A DNA stretch of 64,000 nucleotides from contig CAVVOP010000008.1 in NCBI GenBank assembly GCA_963749915.1, positions 875,651 through 939,650 on the forward strand. Reading direction: 5' to 3'. Source of the DNA: an uncultured cyanobacterium. GTDB taxonomy: Bacteria > Cyanobacteriota > Cyanobacteriia > Cyanobacteriales > Cyanobacteriaceae. The translations under genes and the position numbers were made by a program. Position 1 is the stretch's first letter. Each line of letters opens with the position of its first letter. This document shows positions 1-17,993 of this stretch, piece after piece. A model generated the notes under the pieces. It searched no databases and was not told the origin of the DNA. It saw nothing but the letters and a program-made list of their open reading frames with translations.

Positions 1-416
1 TGTTGCAATTAGATAGATGACATAAGAAGAATAACCTATGAGTCGGCGAAAATAGAAGGTTCTTGCAACGAGGGGCAAGTGACAAACAGTTCTTCTCAAT
101 TAAATTTTTAATGTCTCTGTCTTTTACCCATATCATTTTCGATCGCGCAGCGGCAGGCAAAGCCTGGTCGCCTCTCAATTTCCCACTAACGTTGCCCATC
201 ACCCACCGCAGATAACCTTTGCATCAATACCGAATCACTTTCGTCGGTCGGTGTGCATGGGCGTTGTTAGCTGCAATCGCTTGCTTCAAGGAATTTATAA
301 GAATAGTGAGTTCCCCAAAATTTATCGGTGGGGTAGTAGGAGTTGAAGTGGGGAACGCACCCTACAAGATCGGCGATCTAACCTCGACGGGTTGCCCATT
401 CGGCTCTCTTGATCGC

Positions 417-1097
417 TCAGGTCAGACCTTTGGTGTCATCTTCGAGTTCCTCGACCATCCACTCACCACCGACCTTATCCCACTTCTTGACCTTAGCCAG
501 TAAGTAAGCAAAGCAGGTGTTCTCGGGAATCTGAACTTTGCTAGAAGTAGTTGATGAGGAACTGGCTCCAACGTTCAAAGTGAAGCCCGATGTTCCCAGG
601 GGGGCGCTCACCGAAACGCTGCCGCCAGTAGTCACCCGTGACGCGAGCTCCGCCTCCATCACGATCCACACGTCGCTCACGATCCGCGCGTCTTTCCCTT
701 CTTCCTTAAGATTATTGCGTGCGACGTCCGCATGCTTGTTAAGCAGTCTTTTCAACGCGTTGCTGGGTACGCTGAGCTTGATCAGAACCAGGTTGGCTGA
801 TTTGGCTGCGCCGCGGCTGAAGGCAACCTGACCACCGGCAGCGGTCAGGTACTTGATCCCAACGTTCACTTCCTTGTCGGAGAAGTTGTCCCATTCAATG
901 AGGTAGGGGCCGGATGTCGTGACGTCAACCTTTGCAAGGTTAGCCGGACTGACGGTTCCTGCAAGGTATAAGTAAGGCGCTTTGCCCAAAGGCGTCTTCT
1001 TCTCTCCAAAAGACACAAGGTTGACATCTTCGCAACCACCTCGGAAATAGCTCTTGCCGGAGTAGACAAATTTGGAGTCAGAGATTTTAACTGTCAT
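417..1097 (-). CDS. Gasdermin-like pore-forming domain protein (putative)
   Basis: 226 aa, GC-rich relative to flanks. It has two S/T/G-rich amphipathic beta segments. ARIVSDVWIV...KVQIPENTCFAYLLAKV parallels gasdermin VYVVTEVL...VTIPSGSTLAFRVAQL (by eye). Confidence 0.5.
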   Translation of the reverse strand: MTVKISDSKFVYSGKSYFRGGCEDVNLVSFGEKKTPLGKAPYLYLAGTVSPANLAKVDVTTSGPYLIEWDNFSDKEVNVGIKYLTAAGGQVAFSRGAAKSANLVLIKLSVPSNALKRLLNKHADVARNNLKEEGKDARIVSDVWIVMEAELASRVTTGGSVSVSAPLGTSGFTLNVGASSSSTTSSKVQIPENTCFAYLLAKVKKWDKVGGEWMVEELEDDTKGLT

Positions 1098-1418
1098 GAT
1101 ACTTAACGTGTCTCCATAGAATTCAGATTTTTCAATTGTGCCGGACGTACTTCATCGTTAATCAGCACTCTCAGGATATTAACCCCATACAGGATGATAT
1201 CCCGAAATTTTCTGTATATTCTGTGATAATAGCAAGAAACTTTCTGGGTAACATGCTAAATAGTTATACTATCAAGAAATATTCTGGATATCATATTAGG
1301 TAGGTCAAAACCTCCTAAAAAATTTCTTATAAATTTGTTTTATTCAATATAACTGAAAAACCATTACCGAGATATTTTTCTTAACATATATTTATATCTA
1401 GCTTGAAATACAGTTAAA

Positions 1419-1656
1419 AACATAGTCTTTTTGCCTTCGGTTTATCTCAAAGGCTACTGTTTCCGACCCTAGGTCACTGCGTGGCTGGAACTGGTGAGAC
1501 AATGACACGACCGCTTTTCTATTATACCCGTTCTGTGGTGCGACTAGGCAACACCTTAATTGAAGTCGCTCCGCCGCCATAGTTTAGTTCTACTTGCCTA
1601 TAGTCTTCGTAACGGCTACGCTCCATTTATTTATTTTTGCCTTGCGCACAGATCAA
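1419..1656. repeat. ~237-bp dispersed structured element, copy 1 (inverted relative to 12145-12381); candidate ncRNA
   Basis: Reverse complement matches 12145-12381 with roughly ten differences. It has internal stems such as GCGACT...AGTCGC and GCCTT...AAGGC. Confidence 0.9.
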
Positions 1657-1671
1657 AGTTCACTGTGAAAA

Positions 1672-2004
1672 ATGAGAACGGGTGAAAAGAAGCTGTTCTT
1701 TCGTTGGGGGTTTGTTCCCGTGGTTTCTTTCCGTGTTGTTTCTGGTTCTGCGTTGGCTTGTTCTGCGGTGTCTTGGTGGTTGCGTCCGGGGCGTTCTGGT
1801 GGTGGCTTCCGTCTGGTTGCCCGTTTTCCTTCCTTGGCTTTGGCTTCTTTGTTTGCTCGGCGCTGGGCTGGTGCTTGTGGTTTCTCGGCGGTGGCGGTTC
1901 GTCCTTGTCCTGCTGTTCCGGGGTGCTGGGTTGTGTCTGTTCCCGTTGTTGTTCCTGCGTCCTCGCCCGTTCGTGGGTGGGGTGCTTGGTCGGCTCTTCC
2001 CTAG
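1672..2004 (+). CDS. Adenine-free-codon small protein (110 aa; S/V/G/A/R/W/P/F/C/L-rich)
   Basis: 1692-2050 has only one A (2003), which is in this frame's TAG stop. A hairpin plus T-tract follows. Confidence 0.6.
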   Translation: MRTGEKKLFFRWGFVPVVSFRVVSGSALACSAVSWWLRPGRSGGGFRLVARFPSLALASLFARRWAGACGFSAVAVRPCPAVPGCWVVSVPVVVPASSPVRGWGAWSALP

Positions 2005-2011
2005 TGGCTCT

Positions 2012-2044
2012 GGTGGGGGTTGTTGCCCCTGCCTTCTTTTTTTT
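2012..2044 (+). terminator. Rho-independent terminator-like hairpin after the A-free ORF
   Basis: GGTGGGGG-ttgttg-CCCCTGCC followed by ttctttttttt. Confidence 0.55.
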
Positions 2045-2297
2045 GTCGTTAAACTTTAACTGCCCTTCTGCCTTCTGCCTTCCTGCCTTCTTTAAGATCC
2101 CAAGTATATGTGATACATACAATAAATTTAGGGTATGCTAATGCAACCTTTTCGTACCCTTTGACAGCAAGACTCTTTTTCCCTACAGTTATTTATATAA
2201 AAAGTCGATGATTTTTTATTATCAGCAAAACCCCTGAAGTGTAAAATAACTACCAAGGGCTTGGTAGCTATCGATTTTAATCTGATTAATTAATATT

Positions 2298-2819
2298 ATG
2301 ACACAGTTAGCTACTGCCAATGGTGGCTTGATTCAGCCTTTGAATCAGTCACTCGATTGTATTATTGAGGCTTTAATTGCTTCTAAGCATAAGGCTTCTA
2401 CCCGTCTAACTTATCGTCAAAATCTCAAGTATTTTGCTCATTATCTGATTCATGGGTTCTTAAATAAATGTCAGAAGATAGTTTTACCTGACATCCAAAT
2501 CAAAGCGGTTATCGGTGAGTTTTTAGGTTTTGAAAAGGTGAGGGCCATCGCTTACACTGCTCAATATCAATTAGATTTAATTGAGGCTGATTATACTCCC
2601 AATAGTATCGGTAAACAGGTCATTCATTTAGCACCGAAGACGGTATCAGCTTTAAATAATTGGCTATCTTGTTACTCTAATCCTCAACCTGAATCACCCC
2701 TGTTTATTAGTCTAGCCAACAATACTAGAGGCAATAGATTAACAGGAAAAAGTATTTACTGCATTGTCAGAAAATATAATGTACCTAAACCTAATACTGT
2801 TACTGTAGGGAAAACATAA
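2298..2819 (+). pseudogene. Tyrosine recombinase remnant (internally deleted and truncated)
   Basis: SAM-like N-terminus (STRLTYRQNLKYF) joined to ESPLFISL...RLTGKSIYCIVRKY. The catalytic R and H-x-x-R...Y motifs are missing. Confidence 0.6.
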
Positions 2820-3278
2820 TCTATTCTTATGTGGCACTCAGTTAATTTAATCATTATACTGCTACGCGATCGATCTAGGAATTATAAATTATGAATGTAG
2901 AAGAAAGTGATGAAACTTAAAAAGTTAAGTTGATGATTATTAAGAGTTTAGTTTGTTTTCCTAATTTGATACTCTACATTTAAAAATCTTTTACCCTTGC
3001 CCGACTCTCTTCCTTTACTTTTAATGGGAGGAACTCGTGATGGAGTTATCGCTAATAATACTCAACTTTATGGAATGACGGAAAAAGACCCAATCTACTC
3101 AAATGAACATAATTTGCTCATTGGTTACGACATTCCCATATCACTGAGGCGATTAAGGGTGGTTGTGATTTATCACTTTTTCACCAGTCATTAGGACATT
3201 CAAGTATTACTACTACCCAAATGGCTCTTCAAAATAGTACAGAAGAATTGATTGCCCCATGTCGCACCAACCTTCTAT

Positions 3279-3725
3279 TTAGGCCGTATAAGTAGAGAAA
3301 TATGCCTTGGGTTGATATCCCAGTCGTTTATACACAGGAACTCCAGCAGGTGTAGCATGAAGAATAGTGCGACTCTTCCCAAATTTCTTCTCTGCCTGTG
3401 CTAGGCAATGTCTAATTACGGTTTGAGCATAGCCATGATTACGATATTCGGGTAATGTTGCCACAAACGCTACATAAAATTTCCCCTCGAGCCACAAAAC
3501 CATAGCAGTGGATACAGGCTTATTCTCTAAGTATCCCACCGTGCCCAATACAGTTTTTCCCCAAAATTCTTCTCTTTCTAAAGGTTCACAAAACTGTTCG
3601 GGTCGCATCTGATAACTAACTGCATTAATATAACCCACTGCTTTTCTTGTTTCTTGATTATCAACACAGACACACTCAAGAGTTGGAATTGGTTTGACTG
3701 ATGGTATAAGTTGATCCGTCGCCAT
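3279..3725 (-). CDS. GNAT family N-acetyltransferase (possibly N-terminally truncated)
   Basis: VATLPEYRNHGYA acetyl-CoA motif and LHATPAGVPVYKRLGY. Confidence 0.85.
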   Translation of the reverse strand: MATDQLIPSVKPIPTLECVCVDNQETRKAVGYINAVSYQMRPEQFCEPLEREEFWGKTVLGTVGYLENKPVSTAMVLWLEGKFYVAFVATLPEYRNHGYAQTVIRHCLAQAEKKFGKSRTILHATPAGVPVYKRLGYQPKAYFSTYTA

Positions 3726-3823
3726 TAGTTCATACTGAAAATATTTATGAAAAATAAGTTTTTATGTGCTATCTTAGTTTCGTTTGATTTCCGTAAATCT
3801 GTATTTAAAGATTTCTGTAAATA

Positions 3824-4609
3824 ATGATAATCAGTATTCAAAGTCAAAAAGGAGGGGTAGGAAAGACTACTCTCTCCATTAACCTTAGTTATGCTTTAAC
3901 CAAAAAAAGGTCGCCCAATAAAGTATTACTCGTTGATTCAGATCCTCAAGGTTCAGCTAGAGATTGGGCTAATGCTAGAGAAGATGAATTACCTTTTATG
4001 GTGGTGGGATTACATCGTCCTACTATTCATCGAGATTTACCAAAAATGGCTCAAGATTATGATTATGTGGTTATTGACGGTTCACCTAGAGTATCAGATT
4101 TAGCTAGATCTGGAATCCTTGCCGCTGACTTAGTTGTTATTCCTGTGCAACCATCTCCTTATGATATTTGGGCAGTAGCAGAAACAGTTAAAATAATCGA
4201 CGAAGCTTCTGTATTTAAAGAAACACTGAAATCTGTATTTGTAATTAATCGTAAAATCGTAAATACGGCGATCGGTAGAGATATAGCGGAAGCTCTTGAA
4301 CAATACTCCATTCCTGTAGCGAAAACTCAAATTTGTCAACGAGTTATTTTTGCTGAATCGGCCGTTACTGGTCAATCTGTATTGGAAACCAGTCGTACTA
4401 ATAAAGTTGAGCAAATGGAAGAGTGGGTATCTAATCGTAATCTAGAAGAAGTAAAACAAGAGTCGCCAAAACCAAAAGTAAAGATGAAAAGATTAACTCT
4501 TGATATTAGTGAAGAGCTTCATAAAGCAATCAAACTTAAATCAGTTCAAGAAGGGATACCTATGGCTGACTTACTAAGAGAATTATTACAAGAGTATTTC
4601 TATAAATAA
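3824..4609 (+). CDS. parA: ParA/ParF partition ATPase fused in frame to a ParG-like ribbon-helix-helix domain
   Basis: Deviant Walker A KGGVGKTT, DSDPQGS and VVIDG motifs. The C-terminal KRLTLDISEELHKAIKLKS is RHH-like. Confidence 0.85.
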   Translation: MIISIQSQKGGVGKTTLSINLSYALTKKRSPNKVLLVDSDPQGSARDWANAREDELPFMVVGLHRPTIHRDLPKMAQDYDYVVIDGSPRVSDLARSGILAADLVVIPVQPSPYDIWAVAETVKIIDEASVFKETLKSVFVINRKIVNTAIGRDIAEALEQYSIPVAKTQICQRVIFAESAVTGQSVLETSRTNKVEQMEEWVSNRNLEEVKQESPKPKVKMKRLTLDISEELHKAIKLKSVQEGIPMADLLRELLQEYFYK

Positions 4610-4730
4610 ATAAAGAAATACAGATAATTGTATTTAAAGAAATAAAGATTTACAGAAAGATGAAATGCTCTAATTTTTTGATTCAATCTATAAATATAAT
4701 AAAAGTAGGAATAAAAATAAAAGTAAAGTT

Positions 4731-4934
4731 ATGACATTAAGCGATATCAAAGAAACTAAAAAAGACGCTGAATATTACCGAAAAAAAATAGGAGTAAAAA
4801 AGAAAAATCCTGAAGAACTCCGAAAATTATTTGATGAGATCAATAAAAATCTAGAAGAAATGGCAAAATCTAGTGGTATGAGCGTAGAAGAATTAATTGA
4901 AGTCTTAGATCCTAGTAATCCTTCTCCTTTTTAA
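4731..4934 (+). CDS. Putative antitoxin upstream of a PIN toxin
   Basis: 67-aa charged ORF ending 2 nt before a PIN gene. Confidence 0.55.
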   Translation: MTLSDIKETKKDAEYYRKKIGVKKKNPEELRKLFDEINKNLEEMAKSSGMSVEELIEVLDPSNPSPF

Positions 4935-4936
4935 TT

Positions 4937-5380
4937 ATGCTTTTGGTTGTCGATGCCAACATTTTAATTGGTGAATTATTAAGGAAAAGAGGACAAGAAT
5001 TAATCCAAGATTCTCGACTAATTCTGTATATTTCTGAAAGAGTTTTTAGTGAAGCAAACCACGAGTTAAATAAAAGAATCAAGTTAATGATCCAACAGGG
5101 GAGAGTATCTTCATCTGAAGGAGATTTACGGTTAATTAATGCTCAATCTATCATCGATAATGTTGTTAATATAGTACCTTTAATTGATTATCAACACTTA
5201 GAAGAAGAAGCAAAAAATCGTATTCCTCAAGATCCTAATGACTGGGAAACAGTAGCGATTTCATTATTGCTCGATGTTGATATTTGGACAAAAGATAGTG
5301 ACTTTCTCGGTTGTGGTCGTGCCACTTGGACAACGGAAACTTTAATATATTATTTGAATAAACATAAACCAAATTCATAA
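4937..5380 (+). CDS. PIN-domain (VapC-like) nuclease toxin
   Basis: LVVDANILI, DPND and IWTKDSDF acidic PIN motifs. Confidence 0.85.
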   Translation: MLLVVDANILIGELLRKRGQELIQDSRLILYISERVFSEANHELNKRIKLMIQQGRVSSSEGDLRLINAQSIIDNVVNIVPLIDYQHLEEEAKNRIPQDPNDWETVAISLLLDVDIWTKDSDFLGCGRATWTTETLIYYLNKHKPNS

Positions 5381-6133
5381 ATCAAAAACAACCTGGGTTA
5401 GATGTAGCAAATCAGTTTCTAAGAGCAAAATTCCTTAAGGATTTTCCCGATTTGTTAATGCTTCTTTAATAGATTTAGTAAAGTTGTTGCCGCCCGTAAC
5501 GCTTATCTTCCTCATCCCGAACATGAGCGGGTTAAAGCTGTATTACTGGAATGTATCGATGATGCTGTCGCTTTCGACTTTGAGGCTTGAATATAAATAG
5601 TAACTCTAACCGTAACCCACAGACAGGACAAGCTCAAATTCTGGCACTTTACGTCCGGTTAAAGGTCTCGGTCAATATCCGCCATCCTTTGGATGATCGT
5701 CTTTGTAGTTGGAGATGTGATATATGCCCAAAATAAAGCAATGCGATCGTGCAGCGCTACTTCGTGATCGTTGTAAATTCTACTCAAACAATCCTAATTT
5801 AGTATGTGCCGTTAATCCTGGTGGCGTGGACACGGATACTTGTATTGATTTTAGAAAGTTTTTTCGTCTTATTTAGTACTACTTGTTTCTCAGAGATAGG
5901 CTAAATCTTCGGTTTTTTTAAGTTTTCTCCTCAAAGTCTCCTTCGGGAACAATCCCTAGACAGAAGCACTCAGAAGTGATTGGAGCAAAATCCGCCCCTT
6001 CTCCAAACAAACCGAAATCTGAGTTCAGTTTTTCCCTTTGTAACAATTTGCCCAGTTTTATTAAGATTTGTTGCATTAACTTGTCAAACTTGTTAGGCTG
6101 TGCGTGAACAGTGCTAATAAAGGAGTAACTTTC

Positions 6134-6241
6134 ATGACAACTATGACGATCGCTTTAATTTCCGTGTTGGTTCTCGGCTGGCTTCTAGCTGCCACCATTG
6201 GGACTTGGGCCTACTTTGCCAATGAACGACCCGACTCTTGA
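6134..6241 (+). CDS. 35-aa single-TM microprotein (not in the ORF track), Psb35-like motif
   Basis: AAGGAG RBS at ~6120; translation MTTMTIALISVLVLGWLLAATIGTWAYFANERPDS. Confidence 0.6.
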   Translation: MTTMTIALISVLVLGWLLAATIGTWAYFANERPDS

Positions 6242-6631
6242 GGGTATGAGAAAAACCCCGCCGAGAATGATGAAAATTCTCGATGCCAGGGCTTTCCATT
6301 ACCCTAATCAGTAATTTAGTTGTGAGTTTTCTCAACACAAGTAATTAACTTTCAATCCCGTAAACCGACTAGTCCAGAAAGTTTACGGTTAATATCATAC
6401 AATATTCTCGCTCTCTACTTTCCTTTAATTCGCTACAGAATTCAAGAGCAGTAATTGGTGATTAATTTCTGTGTTTTCTAGTAGTTGCTTTTCATCCATA
6501 CTGTCTAAACTACCATATTTCGTTACCCCTCTGAACGGTTACGATATTTCTCTACTGGTGGAATGCAGAATTAAGAATGTAGAATGCATCAGTGGAAAAC
6601 CTTTTATTTTGAATCATGCCCAATTTACATT

Positions 6632-7231
6632 TCAAAAAAAGGAAATTTGACACCATTCGCACTTTTCTCCGTCGTTACCATTATGATCGATAGCCCAGAC
6701 TCTCCATCTTAAGCTATCGCAACCTACATCTTTTGCTCTAAGATGTATTTTTGAACTATAAATAGGATTATTCATCAGACGAAACGCTACCCCACGTTTG
6801 ATGAACCATGGATGATCTTCTGACCCACGCCATGCAGTTGGATCATCTTTGCTACTACGGCAGTCAATCTCGATTCCATAGGATGCCGCTCCTTCTACAG
6901 GATGCCAGTAAATAGGAAAAAAATAATTATCCGGTGGCCATTTCCTGGCTGAGTTGCACTTAGGTTCTTTCATCACAGGTGGAGGTAATTTAGCTGTCAG
7001 ATCAGATGTCGATTCCGATGAGGTCGATGGTGGCAAAGAGGAAGGTTCTGGTATCGTTGAGGAAGGAGGAGTGTCTCTTGTTAGCAATGGACCTATTACA
7101 GCAGAGATTAATGTTGTAATAACTGTGACTACTCCTGTAATAATGGCAATCGCGACAGCCTTGTCTCTTCCTTGAGAAGATTTCTTATTTTCTGGAGATT
7201 CATTTATCTTTGAAGGCTCTTGTTCGTTCAT
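6632..7231 (-). CDS. Membrane-anchored protein with a Pro/Ser linker and a fibronectin-III-like C-terminal domain
   Basis: TM AVAIAIITGVVTVITTLISAVIG; WHPVEGAASYGIEI...WRVWAIDHNGNDGEKCEW resembles an FN3 pattern. Confidence 0.6.
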   Translation of the reverse strand: MNEQEPSKINESPENKKSSQGRDKAVAIAIITGVVTVITTLISAVIGPLLTRDTPPSSTIPEPSSLPPSTSSESTSDLTAKLPPPVMKEPKCNSARKWPPDNYFFPIYWHPVEGAASYGIEIDCRSSKDDPTAWRGSEDHPWFIKRGVAFRLMNNPIYSSKIHLRAKDVGCDSLRWRVWAIDHNGNDGEKCEWCQISFF

Positions 7232-7548
7232 AAAAATTTACTCCATCGCTTGCCCATAAAATCATGATAGATATAGATATTCAAAGTAGAAATAAACTTC
7301 ACAATCTTCCAGATTAAAACAGTATTAGCTGCAACAGTTTCCGTTCAAGATTCGACGATCGTCCTCAAAGATATAGTTATTTATGATAACTCCTCCCATT
7401 CCAAATTCGAAAAGCTGCGACGGCACAAGAGAGGTAGCTTTAGCTAATCTCTTTACAAATACAATTCGCTTTTGTCCTAATGATTGCTTGAGGAGTCTTA
7501 TTGGCAATGTTCCTTCGCTCTCTTTTATTTTGGAAAAATAGATTAGAG

Positions 7549-7881
7549 TCAAATTCTAGAAAAGGGAGAACAAGGTCTTTCAACACAGGGACCTCGACGA
7601 ACCTGAATACCTCCAAACCGAGAGTCGAAGCAATAAGTAACTTCTCTGATGCTTTGTCGAAAGCCAAGAAATCCAAATGGTGGAATGGGCTGAAGCCGGC
7701 AACGGCTACATTCTTCAAACAGGCTAAAACAATTAAAAGGTGCTACTGGAACTCCTTCTAGAATCTCTCTTGGGTCAAAGAAACCTGAATCAAAATTTGG
7801 TTGAGATGGAGCAATCTTGGCAGTAAGTGGTCTCATGTTACTGTTTCGATTGGTGCCAACAGATTGTATTGGAATTTTCAT
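7549..7881 (-). CDS. Cys-rich peptide precursor 3 (shared leader MKIPIQS...R...IAPS; 6 Cys)
   Basis: Leader homologous to 8229-8486 and 8732-9034; purine-rich RBS. Confidence 0.7.
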   Translation of the reverse strand: MKIPIQSVGTNRNSNMRPLTAKIAPSQPNFDSGFFDPREILEGVPVAPFNCFSLFEECSRCRLQPIPPFGFLGFRQSIREVTYCFDSRFGGIQVRRGPCVERPCSPFSRI

Positions 7882-8228
7882 CTTTCTCTTCTAGAAATAG
7901 TTCGGGTATTAATTTTACGTGAGGCTATATTAGGCTTTGATTCGATTAAGATCACGATACTTTGCCTTTTACCAAACGGACGAAAAAGGGTTCTGTCTAA
8001 AACCAAATACTTGCTCAGGTAATCTAATTAGTAATACTCCTTAAATTGATAAATTTTTCGAATAAAATCAATTATCGTTTGTTTTTGTGTATTGTGCTGT
8101 CGCTAAAACACTTAACACCTTACTAATAAGATCACAAAGAGCAATTAATCTTTTTTACCAATTTGTTTCAACGAGCAAGTAACCTCTTCCAAAAACCTGA
8201 AAATAGGTAAATTTTCTATTGTCCCTTT

Positions 8229-8486
8229 TTAACCAAAGCCAATAGTAAAGTTTTGTGCTATGCAAAACCCAAAAGGAATACAACCAAAAGTATTGTTGCA
8301 GATGCTAGTTAATCGGCAAGCAAAACCTTGGGGACAGTTAACGTATCCTAAAATCTCGCGACAAATACGACGATTATCACCAGGGCAACATGCCGCAGGA
8401 TGCACTCCTACTTTATCTAGATTACTAGCGTGAACACTAATGATACTAGCTCTCACAGTAGAGTTAGCCTGTTTGGGAAGTTTCAT
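8229..8486 (-). CDS. Cys-rich peptide precursor 2 (leader MKLPKQA...R...GVHPA; 8 Cys)
   Basis: GAGG RBS, shared leader, core ACCPGDNRRIC...C...C...C...C...C. Confidence 0.75.
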   Translation of the reverse strand: MKLPKQANSTVRASIISVHASNLDKVGVHPAACCPGDNRRICREILGYVNCPQGFACRLTSICNNTFGCIPFGFCIAQNFTIGFG

Positions 8487-8731
8487 TTTTCTATCCTCTT
8501 AAACAAAAATTTGAACGAATAAGTAATATAAGGTAGTTAATATTGCTAAAGACTCGTTATCTAATAAACCACGATCGCACTATTTTTTCAGCACTATTAT
8601 CTGGACAAAAAGCACATCAGGCGATCGCTAATTCTAACTGAACGACTTTCTTTCCCTAACTCAAACACTTACGGTTTAAGAAATTCTGCCGTTTAATCTA
8701 CCATTGTAAGATTGAGAGGTACGTACGCTAC

Positions 8732-9034
8732 CTAAGGGAAAACTGGCACGGGTCTTGGCCTCGCTTGGAATGGGAAAGGTGGGGATGCCGGATCCTCAGG
8801 AGGAAGCCCAGCAATCGTGCACGCAAAAGTGCAGCCGTCATGACAAATATCAGGAGGAACCCATATAGGACAGGCAAGCTTGCAGAGATCTCGGCACAAG
8901 TTGCCGGGACCCTGCGGTTGCGGTTCGCGTAGGATAGTACCGAAGCGACCAACCCAAGCTGCATTAATGCCAGTATAAGAGGGCATTGCTCTTGTGCTGC
9001 GCGTAACATTGACGGATTGAACTGGGAGTCTCAT
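8732..9034 (-). CDS. Cys-rich peptide precursor 1 (leader MRLPVQS...R...GINAA; CxxxCxxxC twice)
   Basis: GGAGG RBS; core LCRDLCKLAC...ICHDGCTFAC. Confidence 0.75.
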   Translation of the reverse strand: MRLPVQSVNVTRSTRAMPSYTGINAAWVGRFGTILREPQPQGPGNLCRDLCKLACPIWVPPDICHDGCTFACTIAGLPPEDPASPPFPFQARPRPVPVFP

Positions 9035-9196
9035 TTTTGCCTCCTTTTACTAGATGATTGAATTAATTGGAAGTTTCATTTTTGTATTCTTCTTAAAAAG
9101 TCTAAATTTATCGAGTTGTAGTTTTACACGAAGACTACGAATTAAGCAAATTCACGATCGCACTAACACACCCTACAAGATTAGCGATCGCACTAG

Positions 9197-10794
9197 GTTG
9201 GTGTCTTGAATTTTTCGCCACAGATATTAACCATAAAAAGGCGATCTGCTTGCAGCAGCGCTTCGCTCCGCCAAATCTCAAAGGCGATCATTAAACCTCA
9301 AAGGAGATCGTTAAACCTCAAAGGCGATCATTACCACGAAAAGATGGTGGTCTGCTTCATTAAATAATAGATGTCAGTAATTCAAAATTAAGGGAACAGT
9401 GAGTCAAGCCTCAGGGAAAGGGTCGGTTGTGTTTCGCGTGTTCTCGTTGGACAACGAGGAAGAACAAAGTCAGACAACTCATTTCATTGGGAAAAGAGCC
9501 GATTTCATCAGCCTTACGACGAAATTCTTCAAAGAGGCGTTCGAGCAAGTTGGATGTCCGAATTCGGGGATGCAACTCCGCTTCAAATTGGTAAAAGGTG
9601 AAAGTCAGCTCAATATCTCGCAGAAAGACTTCTACCGCTTTCGCTTCTAAGTTTTGCCACTTTTTGACAAAAGCATTGAGTCGTTGCCGGGCCTCAATCC
9701 AAGACTGAGCACGATAGATATCATAAGCGTCTTCTTGAATCTCAAAGCGGCGTTGCTGTTTGGCTTGCTGCTCATCGAAGTCGGCAGTTGTTGTCTCGGA
9801 CGAGGGAGACAACTGTTGATAGGTGAGATAGCGCTTCATTCCTCTCACCTTGTGAGTTGTGCATCGTTGCTGTTGGGCATTGGGTAAGCACTGTGTCATC
9901 ACACCTGGCAGTCCTGAAATCCCATCACTGACTATGAGCTTAACCGCTTGGGGGTCGAGTCCTCGCTCAGTTAAGTGAGTGAAGAAATTTAGCCAAGATT
10001 GACTGTTTTCTCCTTCAGCTATTTCATAGTGCAACAACTGGTAGGTGCCATCGGGCCAGACCGCCATAGCGGCTAAGATAACCCGCTCTTGAGCTTGGCG
10101 TACTTGACGAAGATGTCCAGCTCGGTCAAGTTTCTTCTCATCCAGTGTGTATAAAATATCTATCCAGACTCCATCCACAATCAGAATCGGTGGGGTTACC
10201 TCAATCAGAGACTGACGCCGGATTTCCATCTGTTTTTGAGCCTCCAGAGTTACACGATTGACGGCAGTTAGTGAGAGAACACTGCCAAGTAGATGATACA
10301 ATGCTTCTTGGAGATTTCGTAGAGATAATCCCAAGACATAAAGACACAGTGTCATGTCTAGTAAGCTCTGAAGCCCTCTTTGATAACGTTTGAGAATCTG
10401 CCATTCTCGTTCATGATTGGAGTCGCGCAGTTTGGGGACTCGTAACTCAGGGATTCTCCCATACTGAGTGTCCAACAGACGATGGAAATAACCTGAACGT
10501 CTTGCCTGAGGACCACTTCGGCTAGAGCGAAACGACTCTAACTCTTCCACTAGGGCTGCTTCGACGGTGGCTTTGATAACTCCTGTAACTTCAGTACGCA
10601 GAGTGTTTTCCAGTTCTGAAGTAATTTCTGACTGAAAGCTTTGAGATTTGACACGGAGAATTTGCTGTTCTCGTTCTGCGAGCTTCATAAACGAGTCCTT
10701 AAATATCAAGTTTAATTTCTTGGTTTATCTTGTTTATCTTGTTTATCCTGCTTTCATCAGCTTGTCAAGGTGGCGAAAAATTCAAGACACCAAC
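9197..10794 (-). mobile_element. IS256-family insertion sequence
   Basis: 25-bp terminal inverted repeats GTTGGTGTCTTGAATTTTTCGCCAC at 9197-9221 and 10770-10794 enclose a Mutator-type transposase. No target duplication is visible. Confidence 0.9.
9411..10709 (-). CDS. IS256/Mutator-family transposase
   Basis: RSGYFHRLLDTQYGRIPELRVPKLR, IVDG, VSDG and QRCTTHK motifs, plus IRTSNLLERLFEEFRR. Confidence 0.9.
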   Translation of the reverse strand: MIFKDSFMKLAEREQQILRVKSQSFQSEITSELENTLRTEVTGVIKATVEAALVEELESFRSSRSGPQARRSGYFHRLLDTQYGRIPELRVPKLRDSNHEREWQILKRYQRGLQSLLDMTLCLYVLGLSLRNLQEALYHLLGSVLSLTAVNRVTLEAQKQMEIRRQSLIEVTPPILIVDGVWIDILYTLDEKKLDRAGHLRQVRQAQERVILAAMAVWPDGTYQLLHYEIAEGENSQSWLNFFTHLTERGLDPQAVKLIVSDGISGLPGVMTQCLPNAQQQRCTTHKVRGMKRYLTYQQLSPSSETTTADFDEQQAKQQRRFEIQEDAYDIYRAQSWIEARQRLNAFVKKWQNLEAKAVEVFLRDIELTFTFYQFEAELHPRIRTSNLLERLFEEFRRKADEIGSFPNEMSCLTLFFLVVQREHAKHNRPFP

Positions 10795-11392
10795 TAAAAA
10801 GATAATCAATCCCTTCCTGCCTTAACTCTTGTAACTCCTCCCACAGATTCCGAATGACTAAAATAGTTCTTTGTTTACTTCCCTTACCAACGATCGATAA
10901 ATTAACTAAATCATCATCAACCCTAAAATTCGACCACTTCAAATTAACCGTCTCACTCACCCGTAAACCCAAACCAAACATCACCTTAACTAATAGCTTA
11001 TCTCTAGTCGTTTGGGCATGGTCAATTAATTTCTGTATATCCTCCACCGTTAACAACTTCTGAGAAATAGTCTCATTTACCTTGGGACTCTCAATCATCG
11101 ATGCAGGATTAACCTTGAGATAGCCTGTCTTCACACAGTAGGAAAACAAACTCTTAATAATCATCAACTTCACCTTAATAGTTGATGCCTTTTGTTGTCT
11201 TAATTGTAGAGATCGCAGATAATCTTGAATATCCTCTAACATAATCTCCGATAAATCCTTACCCGTAAATGCCATAAATTGTTGTATCGTACAGGTATAT
11301 TGACTTTGCGTATGTACAGACCGCTTATTGGTTAACCAACTTAAGAGCATTTCCGAGTCGTTGTTAGCACGAGTGACTTTCTCCGAGCGCAT
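10795..11392 (-). pseudogene. XerD-like tyrosine recombinase truncated by IS256
   Basis: SAM domain, RDKLL...GLRVSE and GKGSKQR are present. The frame runs into the IS256 IR before the HxxR/Y motifs. Confidence 0.85.
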
Positions 11393-11844
11393 GATGACCC
11401 CAGGATTTTAGAGAATGAAATTATTATATCTGAGTGAGGATTACTTTGAACATTATATATAGTTATGTTCAATCCGACCTGGCACAGACAAACTTATTGA
11501 GTCAGAATAATTCACCCTAATCTTTACGGTCATTACTTTTCAGCCTGTTGCCACCTGGCTCAAATAACCTTGACTCTTTTGACACCAAAACTCTTGATTT
11601 CACCAAGTATTTTACTGAGTATTTTACTAGTATATTATTAGTTTGACGGACGGGCGATCGCTTTTTTGAGAATAATAAAATTAATTATTTCACACTTCTA
11701 AATCAATATTTATGGCTCTACTGAAAGAGTCAAATAACTCTTAACCCCCTGTTGCCGCACTAGTAAGCATCACCAAAGTATTTCACTTCTTTTCCATCAA
11801 ATGCCATCAATAAGTGCTGACCTTCTTCGTCTTCAATCTGATAT

Positions 11845-12146
11845 AACCCACATTCCGCATGTTCTTTTAGAAAACAATCATATTTTAATGACTTTTACGC
11901 AACTTTACTATAGGTAATACATATATTTATTGTTTTTTGCGAGCAGCTTCGCTGTGCCCTTGGCATCGCATAGTGACAATTGGCGAGCAGCTTCGCTGTG
12001 CCTTTGGCATCGCCATATACAGATTTTTACAGTATTTATATTTGTTTAATCTCAATTTCGTTGTTTTATTACTTGGGGAATATTTTGTAAACAAGGCGTT
12101 AAGGTATTACATGGCATAGTGCAAATTGACGTGCGGAATGTGGGTT
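11845..12146. mobile_element. MITE-like element of ~300 bp
   Basis: Perfect 15-bp inverted repeats AACCCACATTCCGCA (11845-11859) and TGCGGAATGTGGGTT (12132-12146), with no transposase between them. Confidence 0.65.
11939..12013. repeat. Two copies of a 23-nt insertion splitting HIP1 (GCGA|TCGC), SDR5-like small dispersed repeat
   Basis: GCGA-gcagcttcgctgtgccYttggca-TCGC at 11939-11969 and 11983-12013. Confidence 0.75.
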
Positions 12147-12381
12147 GATCTGTGCGCAAGGCAAAAATAAATAAATGGAGCGTAGCCGTTACGAAGACTA
12201 TAACTAAGTACAACTAGACTATGGCGGCGAAGCGACTTCAATTAAGGTGTTGCCTAGTCGCACCACAGAACGGGTATAATAGAAAAGCGGTCGTTCATTA
12301 TCCCCACAGTTCCAGCCACGCAGTGACCTAGGGTCGGAAACAGTAGCCTTTGAGATAAACCGAAGGCAAAAAGACTATGTT
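12145..12381. repeat. ~237-bp structured element, copy 2, downstream of the DGR RT
   Basis: Inverted match to 1419-1656. The homology ends where the MITE IR begins. Confidence 0.9.
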
Positions 12382-12487
12382 CTTTAGGGGTGACAACAAC
12401 AAAACACTGTAAGCCGCTCTAGTTCTCGCTTATAAGTAGAGAATTAGTACATGCGTTTTGGTGAAGTTTAGTTTCAAATTGGGGTGA

Positions 12488-12670
12488 AGTGAGTCGAAGA
12501 ACTGTTCGGCTAATGCTTACCAAGCTCCCCGACTCGGTTTGATTTTTGGATGCTGTTACCAGCATCACAGGAACAGGCTGGACTCTTCGGATACACCCTC
12601 GACAGATTCCCACCTGCCAACTCTCGCGATGAAGAGACCTCCCGCCAACGCACACCACACGAAAACCGTT
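12488..12670 (-). ncRNA. DGR template repeat 3' end (IMH*) and spacer RNA remnant
   Basis: AACGGTTTTCGTGTGGTGTGCGTT encodes NGFRVVC, the end of an FGE-sulfatase/CLec-type VR/TR. A structured spacer with the hairpin GATGCTGGTAACAGCATC follows. Confidence 0.7.
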
Positions 12671-13563
12671 CAGTCTTCGTCTTCCCCGATGTAAGTTACT
12701 ATTTCTGACCCGAATTCGATCGCCTAAAATGCGGAAGCCAAGGAAGCTAGCACCGTATTTAGTGGCAAATAGTTGACTCTTGATGGGATGAATTTTTAGT
12801 CTGAGTATTGCCAAATACTCTTCTATTGCTATTCTGGCATCGGCGAGAAAATCTCGTTCGTCGGCAAATAAAGCGAAATCATCAACGTATCTTACGTATT
12901 GAGAAGCTTTGAGAGTTTCTTTGACAAAGTGGTCAAAAGGATTGAGTATGACGTTCGACCAGAATTGACTGGTTAAATTGCCTATAGGTATGCCTTTTCG
13001 CCTTTGTAAGGGGGTTAGCAAATCATCACCTGGAAAATATTCGATGACGGGTTCTTGTTCATTACTATTATCGATGATGGTATCAATCAGCCACAAAGTA
13101 TCAGGACATTTGATTTTACGTCTGATTTGTCGTTTGAGAATTTGATGGTCGATACTGGGAAAATACTTCTTGATATCGCATTGCAAGACGTAGCGGCTGC
13201 GACGAAAAAACTCGATAAATCTTCTCAAAGCTCGATGGGTGACAAATCCCACTCGGTTGGCATAAGAATCACGAATGAAAGTACGCTCAAAAATGGGAAC
13301 GATTATATTACACAGGCCATGGTGAACCACTCTATCTCGGTAGGGAGCGGCAGAAATCAGACGGCTTTTAGGATCTCTGATATGAAAAGTTCGGTAATTT
13401 CCTGGTTGATATGTTTTAGCCGTAAGCTCCTGTTGTAATTTGATTAACTCCCCTTCTAAGTTGTAGTTGAAGTCTAAAATATTATCTCTAAATCTTTTGC
13501 CCAATTGTGCTTTTCTAGCGGCTAAATAGAGGTTATCAAATGTGATAATTTGGGGGTAGAGAT
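12671..13563 (-). pseudogene. Diversity-generating retroelement reverse transcriptase; N-terminus cut by IS1, C-terminal thumb deleted and fused to TR
   Basis: [30 protein letters not shown] (DGR-type SQ motif) and YVRYVDDF. The ORF-track start lies inside the IS1 IR. Confidence 0.85.
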
Positions 13564-14516
13564 GGTCGTGCATCAAATAACTGTGGGATAGCTAATTAAG
13601 TCATGCCAAGTCCATCTCTGGTCACTCAATCCCGATCTTTGAGCGGCTGTTGTCCCTAACCGAATATTTTTCCAAATCCAGTTGAAATAGCTGACGACTA
13701 ACCTTGCCGTTACTTTCGTTTGCTCCCAGACCTTGGCAAATTTATTTTGTTGCCGATGCCATCTTCCTGTCTGTTGCCGGAGAATTCCATTAGTCCTCTC
13801 CAGCCTTTGGTTTCCTTTTTTACTGATCTGGTGCTCTATCTCCTCTGTTAATACCCTTTGATAACCCCTTAAGCCATCAGTATTCCAGTTTTGGCATTGG
13901 GTTTTTCCTTCTGTGGTCACGAGCATCTCCTCCAGAAGTTGATCCTTCCGTTTTCCTACACGAGCTGCCAGAATCAAGCCACTATCTTGAGCTAAACTAA
14001 TTCCTATCCAGCAATCCCCGGCTATTATTTCGTCTGGTTCGCATTGGCACTGTTTTGTCTTGGTGCGCGTTCCCTTGCGTCTTACGCCGACGCGGGGTCG
14101 CACCGCTTTTCGACAAATGACCACATTTCATCAGCGCTTACTTGTTCTGTTTCCACTTGTTGAACCTCAGCATTATGTATCATTTGAGCTTTTTGGCTAG
14201 CATCCCTAATCAAAGAAACTACGGTGCCGTAAGCCCTGCCACTGATTCGACTCACTCCTCTCAGGCTACTGCCTTCAGCATGAGATTGAAGAATGGTATG
14301 AACTTCGGCCGGATTGAGATGGCGGTTATAGTAAAGAGTCTCAAAATGTTCAGGAAAAGTTTTACCACAATGAGGACATTTATAACCCTGGTGTCCTTTC
14401 TCAGTTTTGCCATGTTTGTAAGCTTTATGGTGACCGCAGAGAAGACATTTCATAGAAATAAATAGAATACTACTTTTCTCTCATACTCTCATCCCACAGA
14501 TTTTTGTTTCACGACC
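13564..14516 (-). mobile_element. IS1-family element (InsA 14082-14453, InsB 13573-14124)
   Basis: IRs GGTCGTGcAtCAAAtAaCTGTGGG (13564) and GGTCGTGAAaCAAAaAtCTGTGGG (reverse complement, ending 14516). It has a Zn-ribbon CxxC...CPHC, an ADEMWSFV frameshift window and LERTNGILR. Confidence 0.9.
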
Positions 14517-14830
14517 GAATTATGTTTGAGAACCCAAGTTGGTATGAGATCCCACCAGCCCACTAAGGAAAATTGTCCGGCGAAGCGAATTTTTGAGTGC
14601 GACTCGACTGTCCAGCACTAGACCACAGACAACTTCCTGCCAGCTAATTAAGCACCAAAAACGGCAATTTTCCGTCTGCACCTTTTCCTCATAAAAAATA
14701 AAATCCTCAAAAGTTTGTTTCAGCCAAGTCAATTCGATTTTAGATTTTTCTTTTGACAACTAGGTTTTCAATCTGCAAACATAGATAATAAGTTTGTTCG
14801 CAGAAAATCAGACTGAGGATCTATGCCACA

Positions 14831-15133
14831 ATGCACTTAATTTCGGCAGGTAAACTGAAACAGGTAGCATCTAAATATCCAGATGTAACTAAAACGATTC
14901 AAGCCTTTTGCAAAACGATCAAACAAGCCCAATGGCAAAATTTAATTCAATTACAACAGGTTTATCGAGATGCCGAAGCTGTGGGAAGTTTTACCGTTTT
15001 AAACATTAAAGGGAATAAATATCGTCTCATTCTCGACATCGACTATGAAGAACAAGTAGCATATTTTAAATATTTTCTCACCCATGCAGAATATGATAAG
15101 GAGCAATGGAAAAATGACCCTTACTTTAAATGA
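14831..15133 (+). CDS. higB: HigB-family toxin
   Basis: NIKGNKYRLI...FLTHAEYDK signature. Confidence 0.9.
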   Translation: MHLISAGKLKQVASKYPDVTKTIQAFCKTIKQAQWQNLIQLQQVYRDAEAVGSFTVLNIKGNKYRLILDIDYEEQVAYFKYFLTHAEYDKEQWKNDPYFK

Positions 15134-15533
15134 AAAAAATTACCTCAAACTTTTAGCTCAAATCAAGATTATTCCCAAAATAATTGAATCAGAAGCTGAA
15201 TACGAACAATATTTAGCAGTAGTTGAAAGGCTCATGGCTAAGAAAAATAACCGCACCCCAGAAGAAACAACCTTATTTCGATTGCTGGTCAAATTAATTG
15301 AAGACTATGAAGAAGAATCTTATTCTTTAGAGGATTGGAGTAACCTTTTACCTCATGAAATTTTACAACACCTTTTAGAATCGAGCGGCAGGAAACAAGC
15401 AGATTTAGTCGGAGTTATCAGTTCTTCTAAAGGGTTGATCTCATCCGTAGTCAATGGTAAACGAGCCATTAGCATTGAACTGGCGAAAAAGTTAGGGGCA
15501 TATTTTAAGGTGAATCCTAGTTTATTTATTTAA
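15114..15533 (+). CDS. higA: HigA-family HTH antitoxin
   Basis: LLVKLIEDYEE and a C-terminal HTH (VVNGKRAISIELAKKLGAYF); overlaps higB. Start inferred at MTLTLN. Confidence 0.85.
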   Translation: MTLTLNEKNYLKLLAQIKIIPKIIESEAEYEQYLAVVERLMAKKNNRTPEETTLFRLLVKLIEDYEEESYSLEDWSNLLPHEILQHLLESSGRKQADLVGVISSSKGLISSVVNGKRAISIELAKKLGAYFKVNPSLFI

Positions 15534-15671
15534 TCCCTTTTTGGCAGATTCCCACCAGGGAATCGCGAGCGCAGCGAAGCCCGAGAGCGATGCACCCAGC
15601 TTCAACCAGCAAGACTAACTTTGGCGGGGAGTGCCACCATGATTCTTACTGAATTGATAATTGATTTTAAA

Positions 15672-16148
15672 TTAGATGTTTTTTGTCCGTTTGCTGTTGG
15701 ATGGCCACCACTGACGAAATTCTTGTTCGTATTCTGACCCCGACAGTTGATAGGTCTTTCTTGCCTCAAAGGCTAATCCAATTCCCCAGCCTAGTATAGG
15801 CCAGTAAGACCAGTCGAGGCTGCCATCGGTAATCAGGTCGATAATCACTAAGAAGGCGTTAACGACCAAATAAGAGAAAAGATGTTTCTGGAATTTTTCC
15901 CGACGATAGCTAATAAAGGCACGTCTGGCTTTTTGCTCGTGTTTTTGCTCGAACCACTGCTGTTCAGCTCGCTCAAGCTTCTGGGGGGAAATGCCAAGTT
16001 CCGCCGCCATTTCCAAAAGTTGCTCTGGGGAAAAATCCGACTGTTCCCATTCCTGCTTCATAGCCAGAGCGAGAATTTGCTGGATATCCTCTTGACTGTA
16101 CGAATCCGTCATCTCCTTTCTCTCCTGCGCTCTTCGTCCATTGAGCAT
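15672..16148 (-). CDS. 2TM-domain membrane protein
   Basis: HLFSYLVVNAFLVIIDL...WSYWPILGWGIGLAF. Confidence 0.8.
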   Translation of the reverse strand: MLNGRRAQERKEMTDSYSQEDIQQILALAMKQEWEQSDFSPEQLLEMAAELGISPQKLERAEQQWFEQKHEQKARRAFISYRREKFQKHLFSYLVVNAFLVIIDLITDGSLDWSYWPILGWGIGLAFEARKTYQLSGSEYEQEFRQWWPSNSKRTKNI

Positions 16149-16413
16149 AATTTTAGCCTGATATTTCGATACTTCAAACAGAATTTTAAAAATTGCCAGC
16201 CAAAATTTCGTCCACCCTCTTACCCCTAATTCGCTCTAGCGTAGTCTACTTAAATTATCAAATAGAGCTCCTCTCTCAGAGAGGGATTAACTCTTCAGTT
16301 TTTTTCAGTTTTCTCCTCAAAGTCTTGTGAGGAAAGAATCCCTAGACACAAGCATACGGTTACAATAAGTTAAACCTTCTACCTCAATAAAACTTAAAAC
16401 AAGGATAAAAGTC

Positions 16414-17375
16414 ATGGCTATATTACAACAAGATCAGTTTGATCTGAGGGTTCTCCAGCTTGTTAATCAATTTCGGGCACAAAATGGTCGGACACCTCTC
16501 ACATTATCTGAAAAACTAGATAAGGCCGCCGATAAATACGCCAATCTCATGGCAAATAAAAACATCCTGTCTCATACTCTTAATAACTCGACTATTGGTT
16601 CAAGAACAACAGCAGAGGGCTATATTTGGAATAGTGTACGTGAGAATATAGCGAAAGGGTATACAACCCCAGAACAGGTAGTTGGAGCTTGGATCAATAG
16701 TCAAGGACATCGCAACAATATGTTAGCCACCGATATTACCCACATGGGACTGGGATACTCATCGAATGGAAATTATTGGTCTCAATCGTTTGCTCGTGGA
16801 GATGCCAATCCAGGAACGTATGTGGCCCAAACAAATGGCGGTTCTGGAGGAGGAGGAACGACTCCAGGAACGTTCAATGGAACTAACGGTAATGACATCT
16901 TAAATGGTACAACGGGTAACGACAAACTTTATGGATATGGAGGTAATGACAAACTTTATGGATATGGAGGTAATGCAAACTTTATGGTGGAAAAAATGAC
17001 ACCTTAATAGGCGGATCTGGTGATGACACCTTAATAGGCGGATCTGGTGATGACATCTTAAATGGAGGAAGAATTGCAGGAACAACAGCTGGTGAACTTG
17101 ATGTTCTTACAGGAGGTTCTGGGAGTGATACCTTTGTTTTGGGAGGTTCTTGGGGAGTTTCTTATTTAGGGGCTAGCAATGCTGTCATTACAGACTTCGA
17201 TTTTAACTATGATTGGATTCGAGTGAAGGGTAGTGCTAGCGATTACCGCATGACAACGGGTAATTGGGGAGGAACTTCCGCGACAGATACAGCTCTCTAC
17301 AAAGGTAATGATTGTATTGCTCTGATCCAAGATACGACTAATGTTAATTTTGGACGGGATTTTCATTTTGTTTAA
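16414..17375 (+). CDS. CAP (SCP) domain protein with RTX Ca-binding repeats; frameshifted near 16977 (pseudogene or assembly error)
   Basis: LVNQFR, ENIA and WINSQGHRNNML motifs, with GGND nonapeptides as 27-bp tandem repeats. One repeat lacks a base (gac>gc), and the downstream frame ends at 17375. Confidence 0.8.
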
Positions 17376-17582
17376 TATCCAATTTGCCTAGCGACTTAAC
17401 TGTAACTTATAGTTGGTAGCAGTATTGTCACTTCTGTTGCTACTCCAGGCTTTGGTCAGATTACCCTTAATGGATTCACAGGATTAGATGCGGGTGACTT
17501 CATCTTTGTATATGTATAATCACCTCAAATCAGACGCTGAGCTAACTCAGAGTTAGGTTAAACAACTTTTTATGTTTTATCT

Positions 17583-17993
17583 TCACTTGAGAGCCTCTAA
17601 AGCTTTTTGGTTGACAATTCCTTTCTCTTCGGCGAGAAATTGGAAGAATTTTCGCAAAGCCACTCTCAGATCATTTTCGGTGGCCGAATCCCACACCTTT
17701 CGTTTATACCATTTTCGGAAATGAGAATTGACCATGCCCTTGGTAATTTCTTCAATCGACTCAACATCAGTTTGCCGACAAATGAAATGGACAAATGTAT
17801 CCACGATATTAGTATGCTTTCTTACCGTCTTCTTGGTATATTTGTCGCTAAGATAGTCAGCAAAGTCCTGATTGAGACTTTCAAGGTGGTTCCGGAAGGG
17901 TTCTCTAGCTGCTTCTGCCTTAGCTAGTGCTTCTAAGTACTGTTCAATCTGATCGCCGGGGATGGCGACTTTACCAGTAAACACTTTGGCCAT
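17583..17993 (-). CDS. Stand-alone integrase SAM-like domain protein
   Basis: FADYL...KTVRKH...LRVALRKFFQFL pattern; no catalytic domain. Confidence 0.55.
   Translation of the reverse strand: MAKVFTGKVAIPGDQIEQYLEALAKAEAAREPFRNHLESLNQDFADYLSDKYTKKTVRKHTNIVDTFVHFICRQTDVESIEEITKGMVNSHFRKWYKRKVWDSATENDLRVALRKFFQFLAEEKGIVNQKALEALK

Follow-up and report, generated by a model that had tools for sequence, protein, structure and literature searches.

What do three small genes with a common beginning and unrelated bodies encode, and which enzyme would process their products? This question is raised by a 64,000-nucleotide (nt) stretch of an uncultured cyanobacterium (contig CAVVOP010000008.1; the whole stretch is called the window below), in which three co-oriented open reading frames (ORFs), ORF1, ORF2 and ORF3, share a conserved N-terminal leader followed by different Cys-rich cores. 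Analyses of this array, of its own genome and of related genomes indicated that ORF1, ORF2 and ORF3 are real genes and members of a leader-tagged family whose other members usually lie beside a subtilisin of the PatA/PatG family. We consider it probable that the window carries an orphaned array of leader-tagged precursors, that lies on a mobile island and was parted from its PatA/PatG-family protease by a rearrangement at an IS256 element.

The three ORFs and the stub that an earlier note on this DNA had described, with their shared N-terminus, were all recovered on the minus strand (Table 1). A first box, M-[KR]-[LI]-P-x-Q-[SA]-x4-R, is common to ORF1, ORF2 and ORF3, and the N-terminus M-[KR]-[LI]-P-x-[QN] extends to the stub. 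About 10-15 residues past the first box lies a second one, [GK]-[IV]-x-[PA]-[SA], which reads KIAPS at residues 23-27 of ORF1, GVHPA at residues 27-31 of ORF2 and GINAA at residues 22-26 of ORF3. The cores are 58-83 residues long and nearly unrelated in pairwise comparison (0-5 bits in phmmer), and their Cys counts agree with those noted before, including the arrangement of ORF3, in which CxxxCxxxC, eight residues and again CxxxCxxxC follow each other. In the own genome of 4.69 Mb, 24 ORFs start with M[KR][LIV]Px[QN], among which only ORF1, ORF2 and ORF3 reach 40 amino acids (aa), the next longest having 34 aa; no further copy or paralogue of the array genes was found in this assembly.

The leader, written as a degenerate DNA pattern in the code of the International Union of Pure and Applied Chemistry, was searched in 401 genomes of the phylum with the reversed pattern as control, and was found at 25 places as against nine for the control. 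Twelve of the 22 places outside the own genome open family-like ORFs, in nine genomes of the same order. These ORFs start with MKLPxQ[AS]xP[VI]xR, most have Cys-rich and mutually unrelated cores, and often two or three of them occur per locus. One place per genome was then fetched together with its surroundings (12-20 kb). Eight of the nine loci carried, within 4 kb, a protein of 636-732 aa with the domains Peptidase_S8, PatG_D and PatG_C, and in six of those eight the protease gene is directly upstream of the leader ORFs and co-oriented with them. Three proteases tested scored 728-793 bits on the model TIGR03895, 'PatA/PatG family cyanobactin maturation protease' (cut-off 421), and the seven inspected have their catalytic domain at the very start and no signal peptide. 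The loci of the relatives mostly hold one protease, and no cyclodehydratase or prenyltransferase was found among the ORFs scanned.

A second sample was anchored on the protease by a search of the order for the PatG_C domain, independent of the motif of the window. Of 400 other genomes of the order, 103 carry the domain; the 19 genomes of the window's family and the six of its genus yielded no match. In 27 of the 30 best-scoring loci, a leader-bearing ORF of at least 40 aa lies within 1.5 kb downstream of the protease, being of the PatB/AcyB/McaB type in 13 loci and a Cys-rich or otherwise variable peptide in the other 14. A hidden Markov model (HMM) of the leader was built from 24 distinct protease-adjacent non-PatB peptides, with no window sequence included, and run against the 64,620 six-frame stop-to-stop segments of at least 30 aa of the own genome. 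ORF1 ranked first (E 9.8e-5), ORF2 second (0.15) and ORF3 third (0.27), and the alignments cover both boxes (MKLPxQS and xPS). Elsewhere in the family the aligned second box reads GVEAS, GVKPS, GVAPS or AINPS, is written [GA]-[VI]-x-[PA]-[SAQ] in its family form and lies about 20-30 residues in. None of 16 family peptides from other genomes matched a Pfam family above cut-off, and family members match the cyanobactin precursor models TIGR04446 and NF042906 weakly (E 0.012 and 0.1).

Co-occurrence of leader and protease was determined with a leader alignment of 27 rows in the 401-genome sample of the order, a hit being E<=1e-3. Thirty of the 31 other leader-positive genomes have PatG_C. Once the 13 source genomes of the model are excluded, PatG_C is present in 17 of 18 leader-positive versus 73 of 369 leader-negative genomes (Fisher 7e-11, a value that overstates the association because the table treats related genomes as independent). 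Five further loci were fetched, in which the protease is again adjacent and the arrays comprise up to six leader-bearing genes. The sole exception, genome G676, has a leader-bearing ORF with three Cys and no PatG_C at E<=1e-10; this ORF lies 1.5 kb from the contig end in an assembly of 500 contigs, and G676 may be a second orphan or its protease may be unassembled. The window's family gave no leader hit in its 19 other genomes. The leader HMM search, which the earlier note had set beforehand as its test, thus revealed a wider cyanobacterial family with a co-occurring PatA/PatG-family peptidase; the processing route, which that note had called uncharacterised, corresponds in the relatives to a PatA/PatG-family cyanobactin protease encoded directly upstream in cis.

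The TIGR03895-type protease gene beside the precursors, which is the norm of the family, is missing from the window and from its genome. PF18065 (PatG_C) gave no match at E<=1 in the own genome, the best own-genome match to TIGR03895 reached 85 bits against the cut-off of 421, and no remnant of the protease turned up with tblastn, either in the window or elsewhere in the genome. The completeness of the assembly is rated at 100%, although it is split into 34 contigs. A PatA-type query aligned, at 31% identity, with no more than the catalytic domain of a subtilase of 582 aa located 260 kb away (contig C8, 624 kb), a generic S8 protease with a signal sequence and a multi-spanning, membrane-anchoring C-terminus. 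Among the 27 ORFs scanned in positions 1-30000 of the window there is no maturase, exporter or peptidase gene, as had been observed before. An action in trans, also proposed before, found no support here, the genome being without PatG_C and without a protease at the level of TIGR03895, and the array looks orphaned.

Analysis of the IS256 junction indicated what may have happened upstream. The element starts 117 nt upstream of the stub and is present as a single copy in the assembly. IS256-family elements normally create a target duplication of 8-9 bp, but none is present here, the left flank reading CGCACTAG and the right flank TAAAAAGA. The far side holds a gene for a tyrosine recombinase that breaks off where IS256 ends; the recombinase's 90% cluster has full-length members of 283-284 aa, and the gene is not resumed on the near side of IS256. 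Since the target duplication is missing and the recombinase is cut, at least one flank of the element has been rearranged and the original upstream neighbour of the array is gone, in line with the earlier suggestion that IS256 may have removed context. By analogy with the relatives, in which the protease precedes the array, the lost neighbour would have been the protease.

Table 1. Positions of the array, its surroundings and related features of other genomes (window positions, unless a locus or contig is named).
Feature	Position	Strand	Description
ORF1	7549-7881	minus	110 aa, 6 Cys; leader MKIPIQSVGTNR...AKIAPS, followed by a long core
ORF2	8229-8486	minus	85 aa, 8 Cys; leader MKLPKQANSTVR...KVGVHPA, core opens with CC
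ORF3	8732-9034	minus	100 aa, 6 Cys; leader MRLPVQSVNVTR...TGINAA
Stub (MKLPINSII-stop)	9050-9079	minus	9 codons; end 12 nt from the ORF3 start
Possible decayed fourth copy	7328-7555	minus	...KQSLGQKR...ATSLVPSQ..., end NGNCCS; no ATG, no MKLP start
Upstream motif ACGATCGCACTA	8567-8582		About 80 nt before the ORF2 start; more copies at 9150-9165 and 9180-9195 before the stub; a repeat family, also in the alignment of upstream regions
IS256-family element	9197-10794		Transposase ORF 9411-10709, minus, 211 bits; 25-nt perfect terminal inverted repeats
Tandem repeats in IS256 left end	9273-9333		Three repeats of 20-21 nt (AAAyCTCAAAGGmGATCrTTA) between inverted repeat and transposase stop
Tyrosine recombinase gene	10795-11392	minus	Breaks off at IS256, near residue 199 of 283-284
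Predicted membrane-anchored protein	6632-7231	minus	199 aa; directly downstream of the array
Reverse-transcriptase ORF (RVT_1)	12419-14453	minus	Abuts IS1-type transposase pieces
HigB/HigA	14831-15533
CAP-domain protein with RTX repeat	16414-17007	plus	7 kb from the array
CAP protein of genome G191	L035:10571-10957		37% identical to the window's; directly after two precursor genes
PatB-type protein	L037:9673-9888	minus	TIGR04220, 119.9 bits
PatB-type protein	L038:9820-10056	plus	TIGR04220, 58.4 bits
Leader-bearing ORF of genome G676	L092, C118:1570-1749		59 aa, 3 Cys
Leader ORFs with acidic cores	L086:12562-13304		105-127 aa; listed for L086, L088 and L089 together, along with the Cys-free amphipathic cores
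Leader ORFs with acidic cores	L088:7214-7998	minus
Leader ORFs with acidic cores	L089:6024-6759	minus
Mini-ORF	L038:10805-10852
Mini-ORF	L039:9498-9545
Mini-ORF	L043:7257-7295	minus	Genome G421
Mini-ORF	L063
Mini-ORF	L071
Mini-ORF	L086:10034-10075
Mini-ORF	L087:9778-9825

Natural variants of the three genes were compared with the window sequences. ORF2 and the protein P0002 are 79% identical and differ in 18 aligned columns, one of which falls in residues 1-38, 17 in columns 39-70 (these include two in-frame gaps of one residue) and none in the last 15, while all eight Cys are kept. An environmental contig of 2767 nt carries a variant of ORF2 (P0005, three changes) together with a variant of ORF1 (P0006), the latter with nine changes, all within residues 41-95, and with the leader and all six Cys unchanged. 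For ORF3, a library of 1.84 billion proteins yielded P0021 (61 aa, E 9.7e-5), which is identical at 23 of 29 positions through GINAA[WF]V and continues past it with a two-Cys core unrelated to that of ORF3. The pairs P0021/ORF3, P0002/ORF2 and P0006/ORF1 therefore mark the same boundary between leader and core. The environmental variants of ORF1 and ORF2 keep the leader and all Cys, and their cores change. The comparison of the array to RiPP precursors (peptides made by the ribosome and modified after translation), made in the earlier note from the conserved leader and the hypervariable Cys-rich core, holds.

In homologous-protein searches ORF1 and ORF3 retrieved only themselves, and no full-length homologue of ORF3 was obtained; ORF2 gave chance-level matches only against 60 relatives (best E 0.014), without family features. 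Searches of genome contigs for the locus of ORF2 and P0002, and for that of P0021, found none. A metagenome match to ORF2 and P0002 (L009) was false, sitting in non-coding DNA of an unrelated contig, and the other matches to ORF3 (P0018, P0019, P0020 and P0022) are long, repetitive or Cys-rich and were read as composition matches, P0020 being the one inspected. Four sediment-metagenome runs contain DNA contigs of 151-251 nt that are at least 99% identical to the window over positions 7756-8413, indicating presence only; a further piece of 35 nt belonged to an unrelated contig. At the level of single peptides, the framework CxxxCxxxC-loop-CxxxCxxxC of ORF3 recurs in the protease-adjacent peptide of locus L049, and ORF2 has KVGV[HA]P, the motif CC-G and, at the C-terminus, GCIPxG...CI...IG in common with the peptide of locus L045; the pairwise score is weak in both cases. 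An AlphaFold2 model of ORF2 from three sequences (mean predicted local distance difference test, pLDDT, of 63) has a disordered leader and a core with a helix and a beta-hairpin (pLDDT 72-82). Foldseek returned nothing for this model from the PDB at E<=0.001, and the leader profile matched no PDB sequence at E<=10. Atlas look-ups scored 0.78-0.82 and are leads only.

The GC content at third positions is 0.25 in ORF1 and 0.28 in ORF2 versus 0.45-0.51 at positions 1 and 2, and the intergenic spacers have 31-34% GC. Both ORFs are taken to be coding because their third-position GC is low relative to positions 1 and 2 in a genome of 37.5% GC, and the intact environmental variants likewise argue that the ORFs are coding. 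Good ribosome-binding sites precede ORF2 and ORF3, that of ORF3 being AAGGAGG. In consensus scans of positions 7200-9300, none of the three starts had a promoter directly upstream, and terminators were likewise not found. A look-up of RNA evidence for positions 7300-9200 gave none. The motif ACGATCGCACTA, found about 80 nt upstream of both ORF2 and the stub, contains most of what we take to be a HIP1-like sequence, GCGATCGC.

ORF3 lies in a sharply bounded GC-rich block at about 8720-9045, with a GC content of 0.48-0.63 inside versus 0.23-0.42 beside it. Directly in front of this cassette stands the stub, the 5' end of what was once a family gene; around their starts, the stub and ORF2 share 81% identity over 31 nt (blastn). 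On the simplest reading of stub and ORF3 together, a family gene of foreign origin took the place of a resident gene's body. The family is likely to diversify by exchanging cores behind a fixed leader, because the stub with the foreign-GC cassette of ORF3, the comparison of ORF3 with P0021 and that of ORF2 with P0002 all point to swapping of cores. The segment at 7328-7555, directly after ORF1, ranked fourth of the 64,620 segments with the leader HMM, with a weak score (E 1.6, 10.9 bits), and may be a decayed fourth copy.

The favoured reading can now be put together. ORF1, ORF2, ORF3, the stub and the possible fourth copy belong to a family of mostly Cys-rich precursors usually placed beside a PatA/PatG-family subtilisin, and this subtilisin is predicted to cut the precursors after the [GA]-[VI]-x-[PA]-[SAQ] box. 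The array would have been imported on a mobile island, the protease would have been lost through the rearrangement at IS256 rather than never present, and the released cores would fold with disulfides.

Several points weigh against this reading. ORF1, ORF2 and ORF3 match no Pfam or NCBIfam model at E<=1, the cyanobactin-precursor and PatB models included, and the individual E values of ORF2 and ORF3 on the leader HMM are only those given above. The window leaders are without the Pro9-[VI]10 that most family members have, which is also absent in some protease-adjacent members (loci L046, L048 and L049). The present function of ORF3 is the least certain, given its odd composition, its Pro-rich tail and its lack of a full-length homologue. 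Cleavage at the second box is suggested by adjacency and by resemblance to the PatA site, and the array may have arrived without a protease. All three ORFs are intact, as are the near-identical copies of ORF1 and ORF2 that a separate environmental contig carries, which agrees more with continued function than with decay; the intact ORFs and copies therefore leave room for a role in trans or independent of the protease.

The strongest alternative, which we nevertheless regard as unlikely, is that the array is functional here and that its products are processed or exported in trans by a non-PatA route, for example by the membrane-anchored S8 protease at 624 kb or by an exporter. The three intact ORFs, the good ribosome-binding sites before ORF2 and ORF3, and a leader that is strictly kept while the cores vary in the environmental variants of ORF1 and ORF2 would all be expected of working genes; a generic S8 protease is present in the genome, and the leader ORF of G676 occurs without a detected PatG_C. 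Against this stands the PatG_C protease of 30 of the 31 other leader-positive genomes, usually adjacent. The S8 protease at 624 kb is distant from the array and matches PatA-type enzymes in its catalytic domain only, with 31% identity and a score far below the cut-off, the scanned ORFs of positions 1-30000 include no exporter or peptidase gene, and the G676 ORF is so near a contig end that its protease may be unassembled. A related proposal, quite unlikely in our judgement, goes further and would make the leader-tagged Cys-rich genes self-contained mobile cassettes that swap cores, cross GC differences and work without a PatA-type protease, the leader having a second, protease-independent role in export or trans-processing.

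ORF1, ORF2 and ORF3 might instead be small accessory proteins of the PatB/AcyB/McaB kind and not precursors. The TIGR04220 proteins do begin with the same box and occupy the same place after the protease, and two PatB clusters are among the neighbours of ORF1 in the Atlas (0.78, lead level only); the window ORFs, however, resemble the non-PatB group in their xPS box and their hypervariable, Cys-rich cores, match TIGR04220 nowhere at E<=1 and are without the conserved PatB core, which makes this explanation very unlikely. That the ORFs are due to chance, or to a repeated non-coding element such as a promoter or ribosome-binding cassette, is hardly credible: the upstream regions and first codons are indeed repeated at the DNA level and the scans found neither promoter nor terminator, but the three ORFs hold the first three of 64,620 HMM ranks, show the codon-position GC of genes and have intact homologues with all Cys kept and with in-frame indels.

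The array lies in mobile surroundings, which comprise genes for ParA, PIN, a reverse transcriptase and HigB/HigA together with pieces of IS1. The 199-aa protein encoded directly downstream of the array combines a hydrophobic segment at the N-terminus with a linker rich in Pro and Ser and, at the C-terminus, a domain with Cys; it matches no Pfam or NCBIfam model and is the sole member of its 90% cluster. A CAP-domain protein is encoded both in the window and in the locus of genome G191 (Table 1) and is the only accessory gene recurring between the window and the protease loci, probably by coincidence. An integron with attC-like sites was considered and set aside; models of XerC/XerD give the recombinase a higher score than those of integron integrases do, and the inverted repeats between the genes are weak. 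Rfam gave no match in positions 1-20000, and there are no tRNA genes in positions 1-30000 of the window.

The leader is not confined to Cys-rich products, as arrays in other genomes (L086, L088 and L089) show. Some of them include long ORFs in which acidic, Ser/Glu/Pro-rich cores with almost no Cys follow the leader, and in others GVEAS precedes amphipathic cores without any Cys. In addition, mini-ORFs of 12-15 codons, reading MK[VLF]PIQAGH[VI]P plus a few residues, are conserved in at least six genomes, mostly in protease loci with a leucine carboxyl methyltransferase-like gene. The mini-ORF locus L043 has an ABC transporter and a methyltransferase, with no protease among the ORFs scanned.

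The logic of protease and leader known from cyanobactins appears to serve a second time, for a product class much larger than the known small macrocycles; a single protease would suffice to make these products, which would be long and hypervariable peptides of the disulfide type. Pfam and NCBIfam have no model for these precursors, and genome-mining tools keyed on enzymes would miss the array of the window. The window itself constitutes a natural experiment, with precursors without the enzyme and with signs of cassette replacement behind the leader. A full-text literature search of partial coverage found no paper on a stand-alone PatA-type protease with long Cys-rich precursors, and such a system is apparently undescribed.

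Among known systems, precursors with a Sec signal or with the double-glycine leader of peptidase-containing ATP-binding cassette transporters differ from the array, as the earlier note had recognised: a hydrophobic run of at least 12 residues is absent from ORF1, ORF2 and ORF3, and the 27 scanned ORFs of positions 1-30000 include no C39/ABC gene. Prochlorosins comprise many hypervariable precursors with one conserved leader, some of them encoded far from a single modifying enzyme in the same genome. They are a precedent for precursor genes remote from their enzyme, and differ from the window array in that their enzyme is in the same genome and in the type of leader and the chemistry.

The small, conserved and non-essential proteins PatB, AcyB and McaB of cyanobactin clusters (TIGR04220, cut-off 55; Table 1) have the same N-terminal box, M[KR]LPK[QL]SxPVKR, and the same place after the protease gene. 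Their conserved core with its HGANYNDP stretch is, on the contrary, not found in ORF1, ORF2 and ORF3, whose cores are hypervariable. The common box suggests that PatB-family proteins are bound or cut by the protease, and since PatB shares the N-terminal tag its role becomes testable, as protease substrate, decoy or chaperone.

A further comparison is with the cyanobactin pathways (pat, tru, acy, pir and others), whose N-terminal protease PatA acts on precursors of the PatE type. The array genes are not canonical cyanobactins because of their core length, the missing macrocyclase signature, the precursor models and the lack of the proteases in their own genome. Their Cys-rich cores of 58-83 residues contrast with cyanobactin cores of 3-20 residues, as given in the available text of the review PMC4663559; there is no AYDG-type macrocyclase signature, the [ASF][YA][DG] motif being absent from ORF1, ORF2 and ORF3 and PatG_C from the genome, and the window ORFs match none of TIGR03678, TIGR04446, NF042906, DUF5837 and DUF5840 at E<=1. 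The likeness lies in the protease of the array's relatives, which is of the same family (TIGR03895; S8, PatG_D and PatG_C), and further in the N-terminal leader, which is short and conserved, in the hypervariability of the cores and in the presence of several precursor genes at one locus. According to the available text of PMC10885120, a review of RiPP leader proteases, the cleavage site of PatA-like enzymes follows G(L/V)E(A/P)S, which the KIAPS, GVHPA and GINAA of the window resemble without being identical to it; the motif GxxP[SA], after which the earlier note had proposed cleavage, resembles this published site, and the cut itself is a prediction. By this analogy the array would work like the first half of a cyanobactin pathway, with a leader, a predicted PatA-type cut and a hypervariable core.

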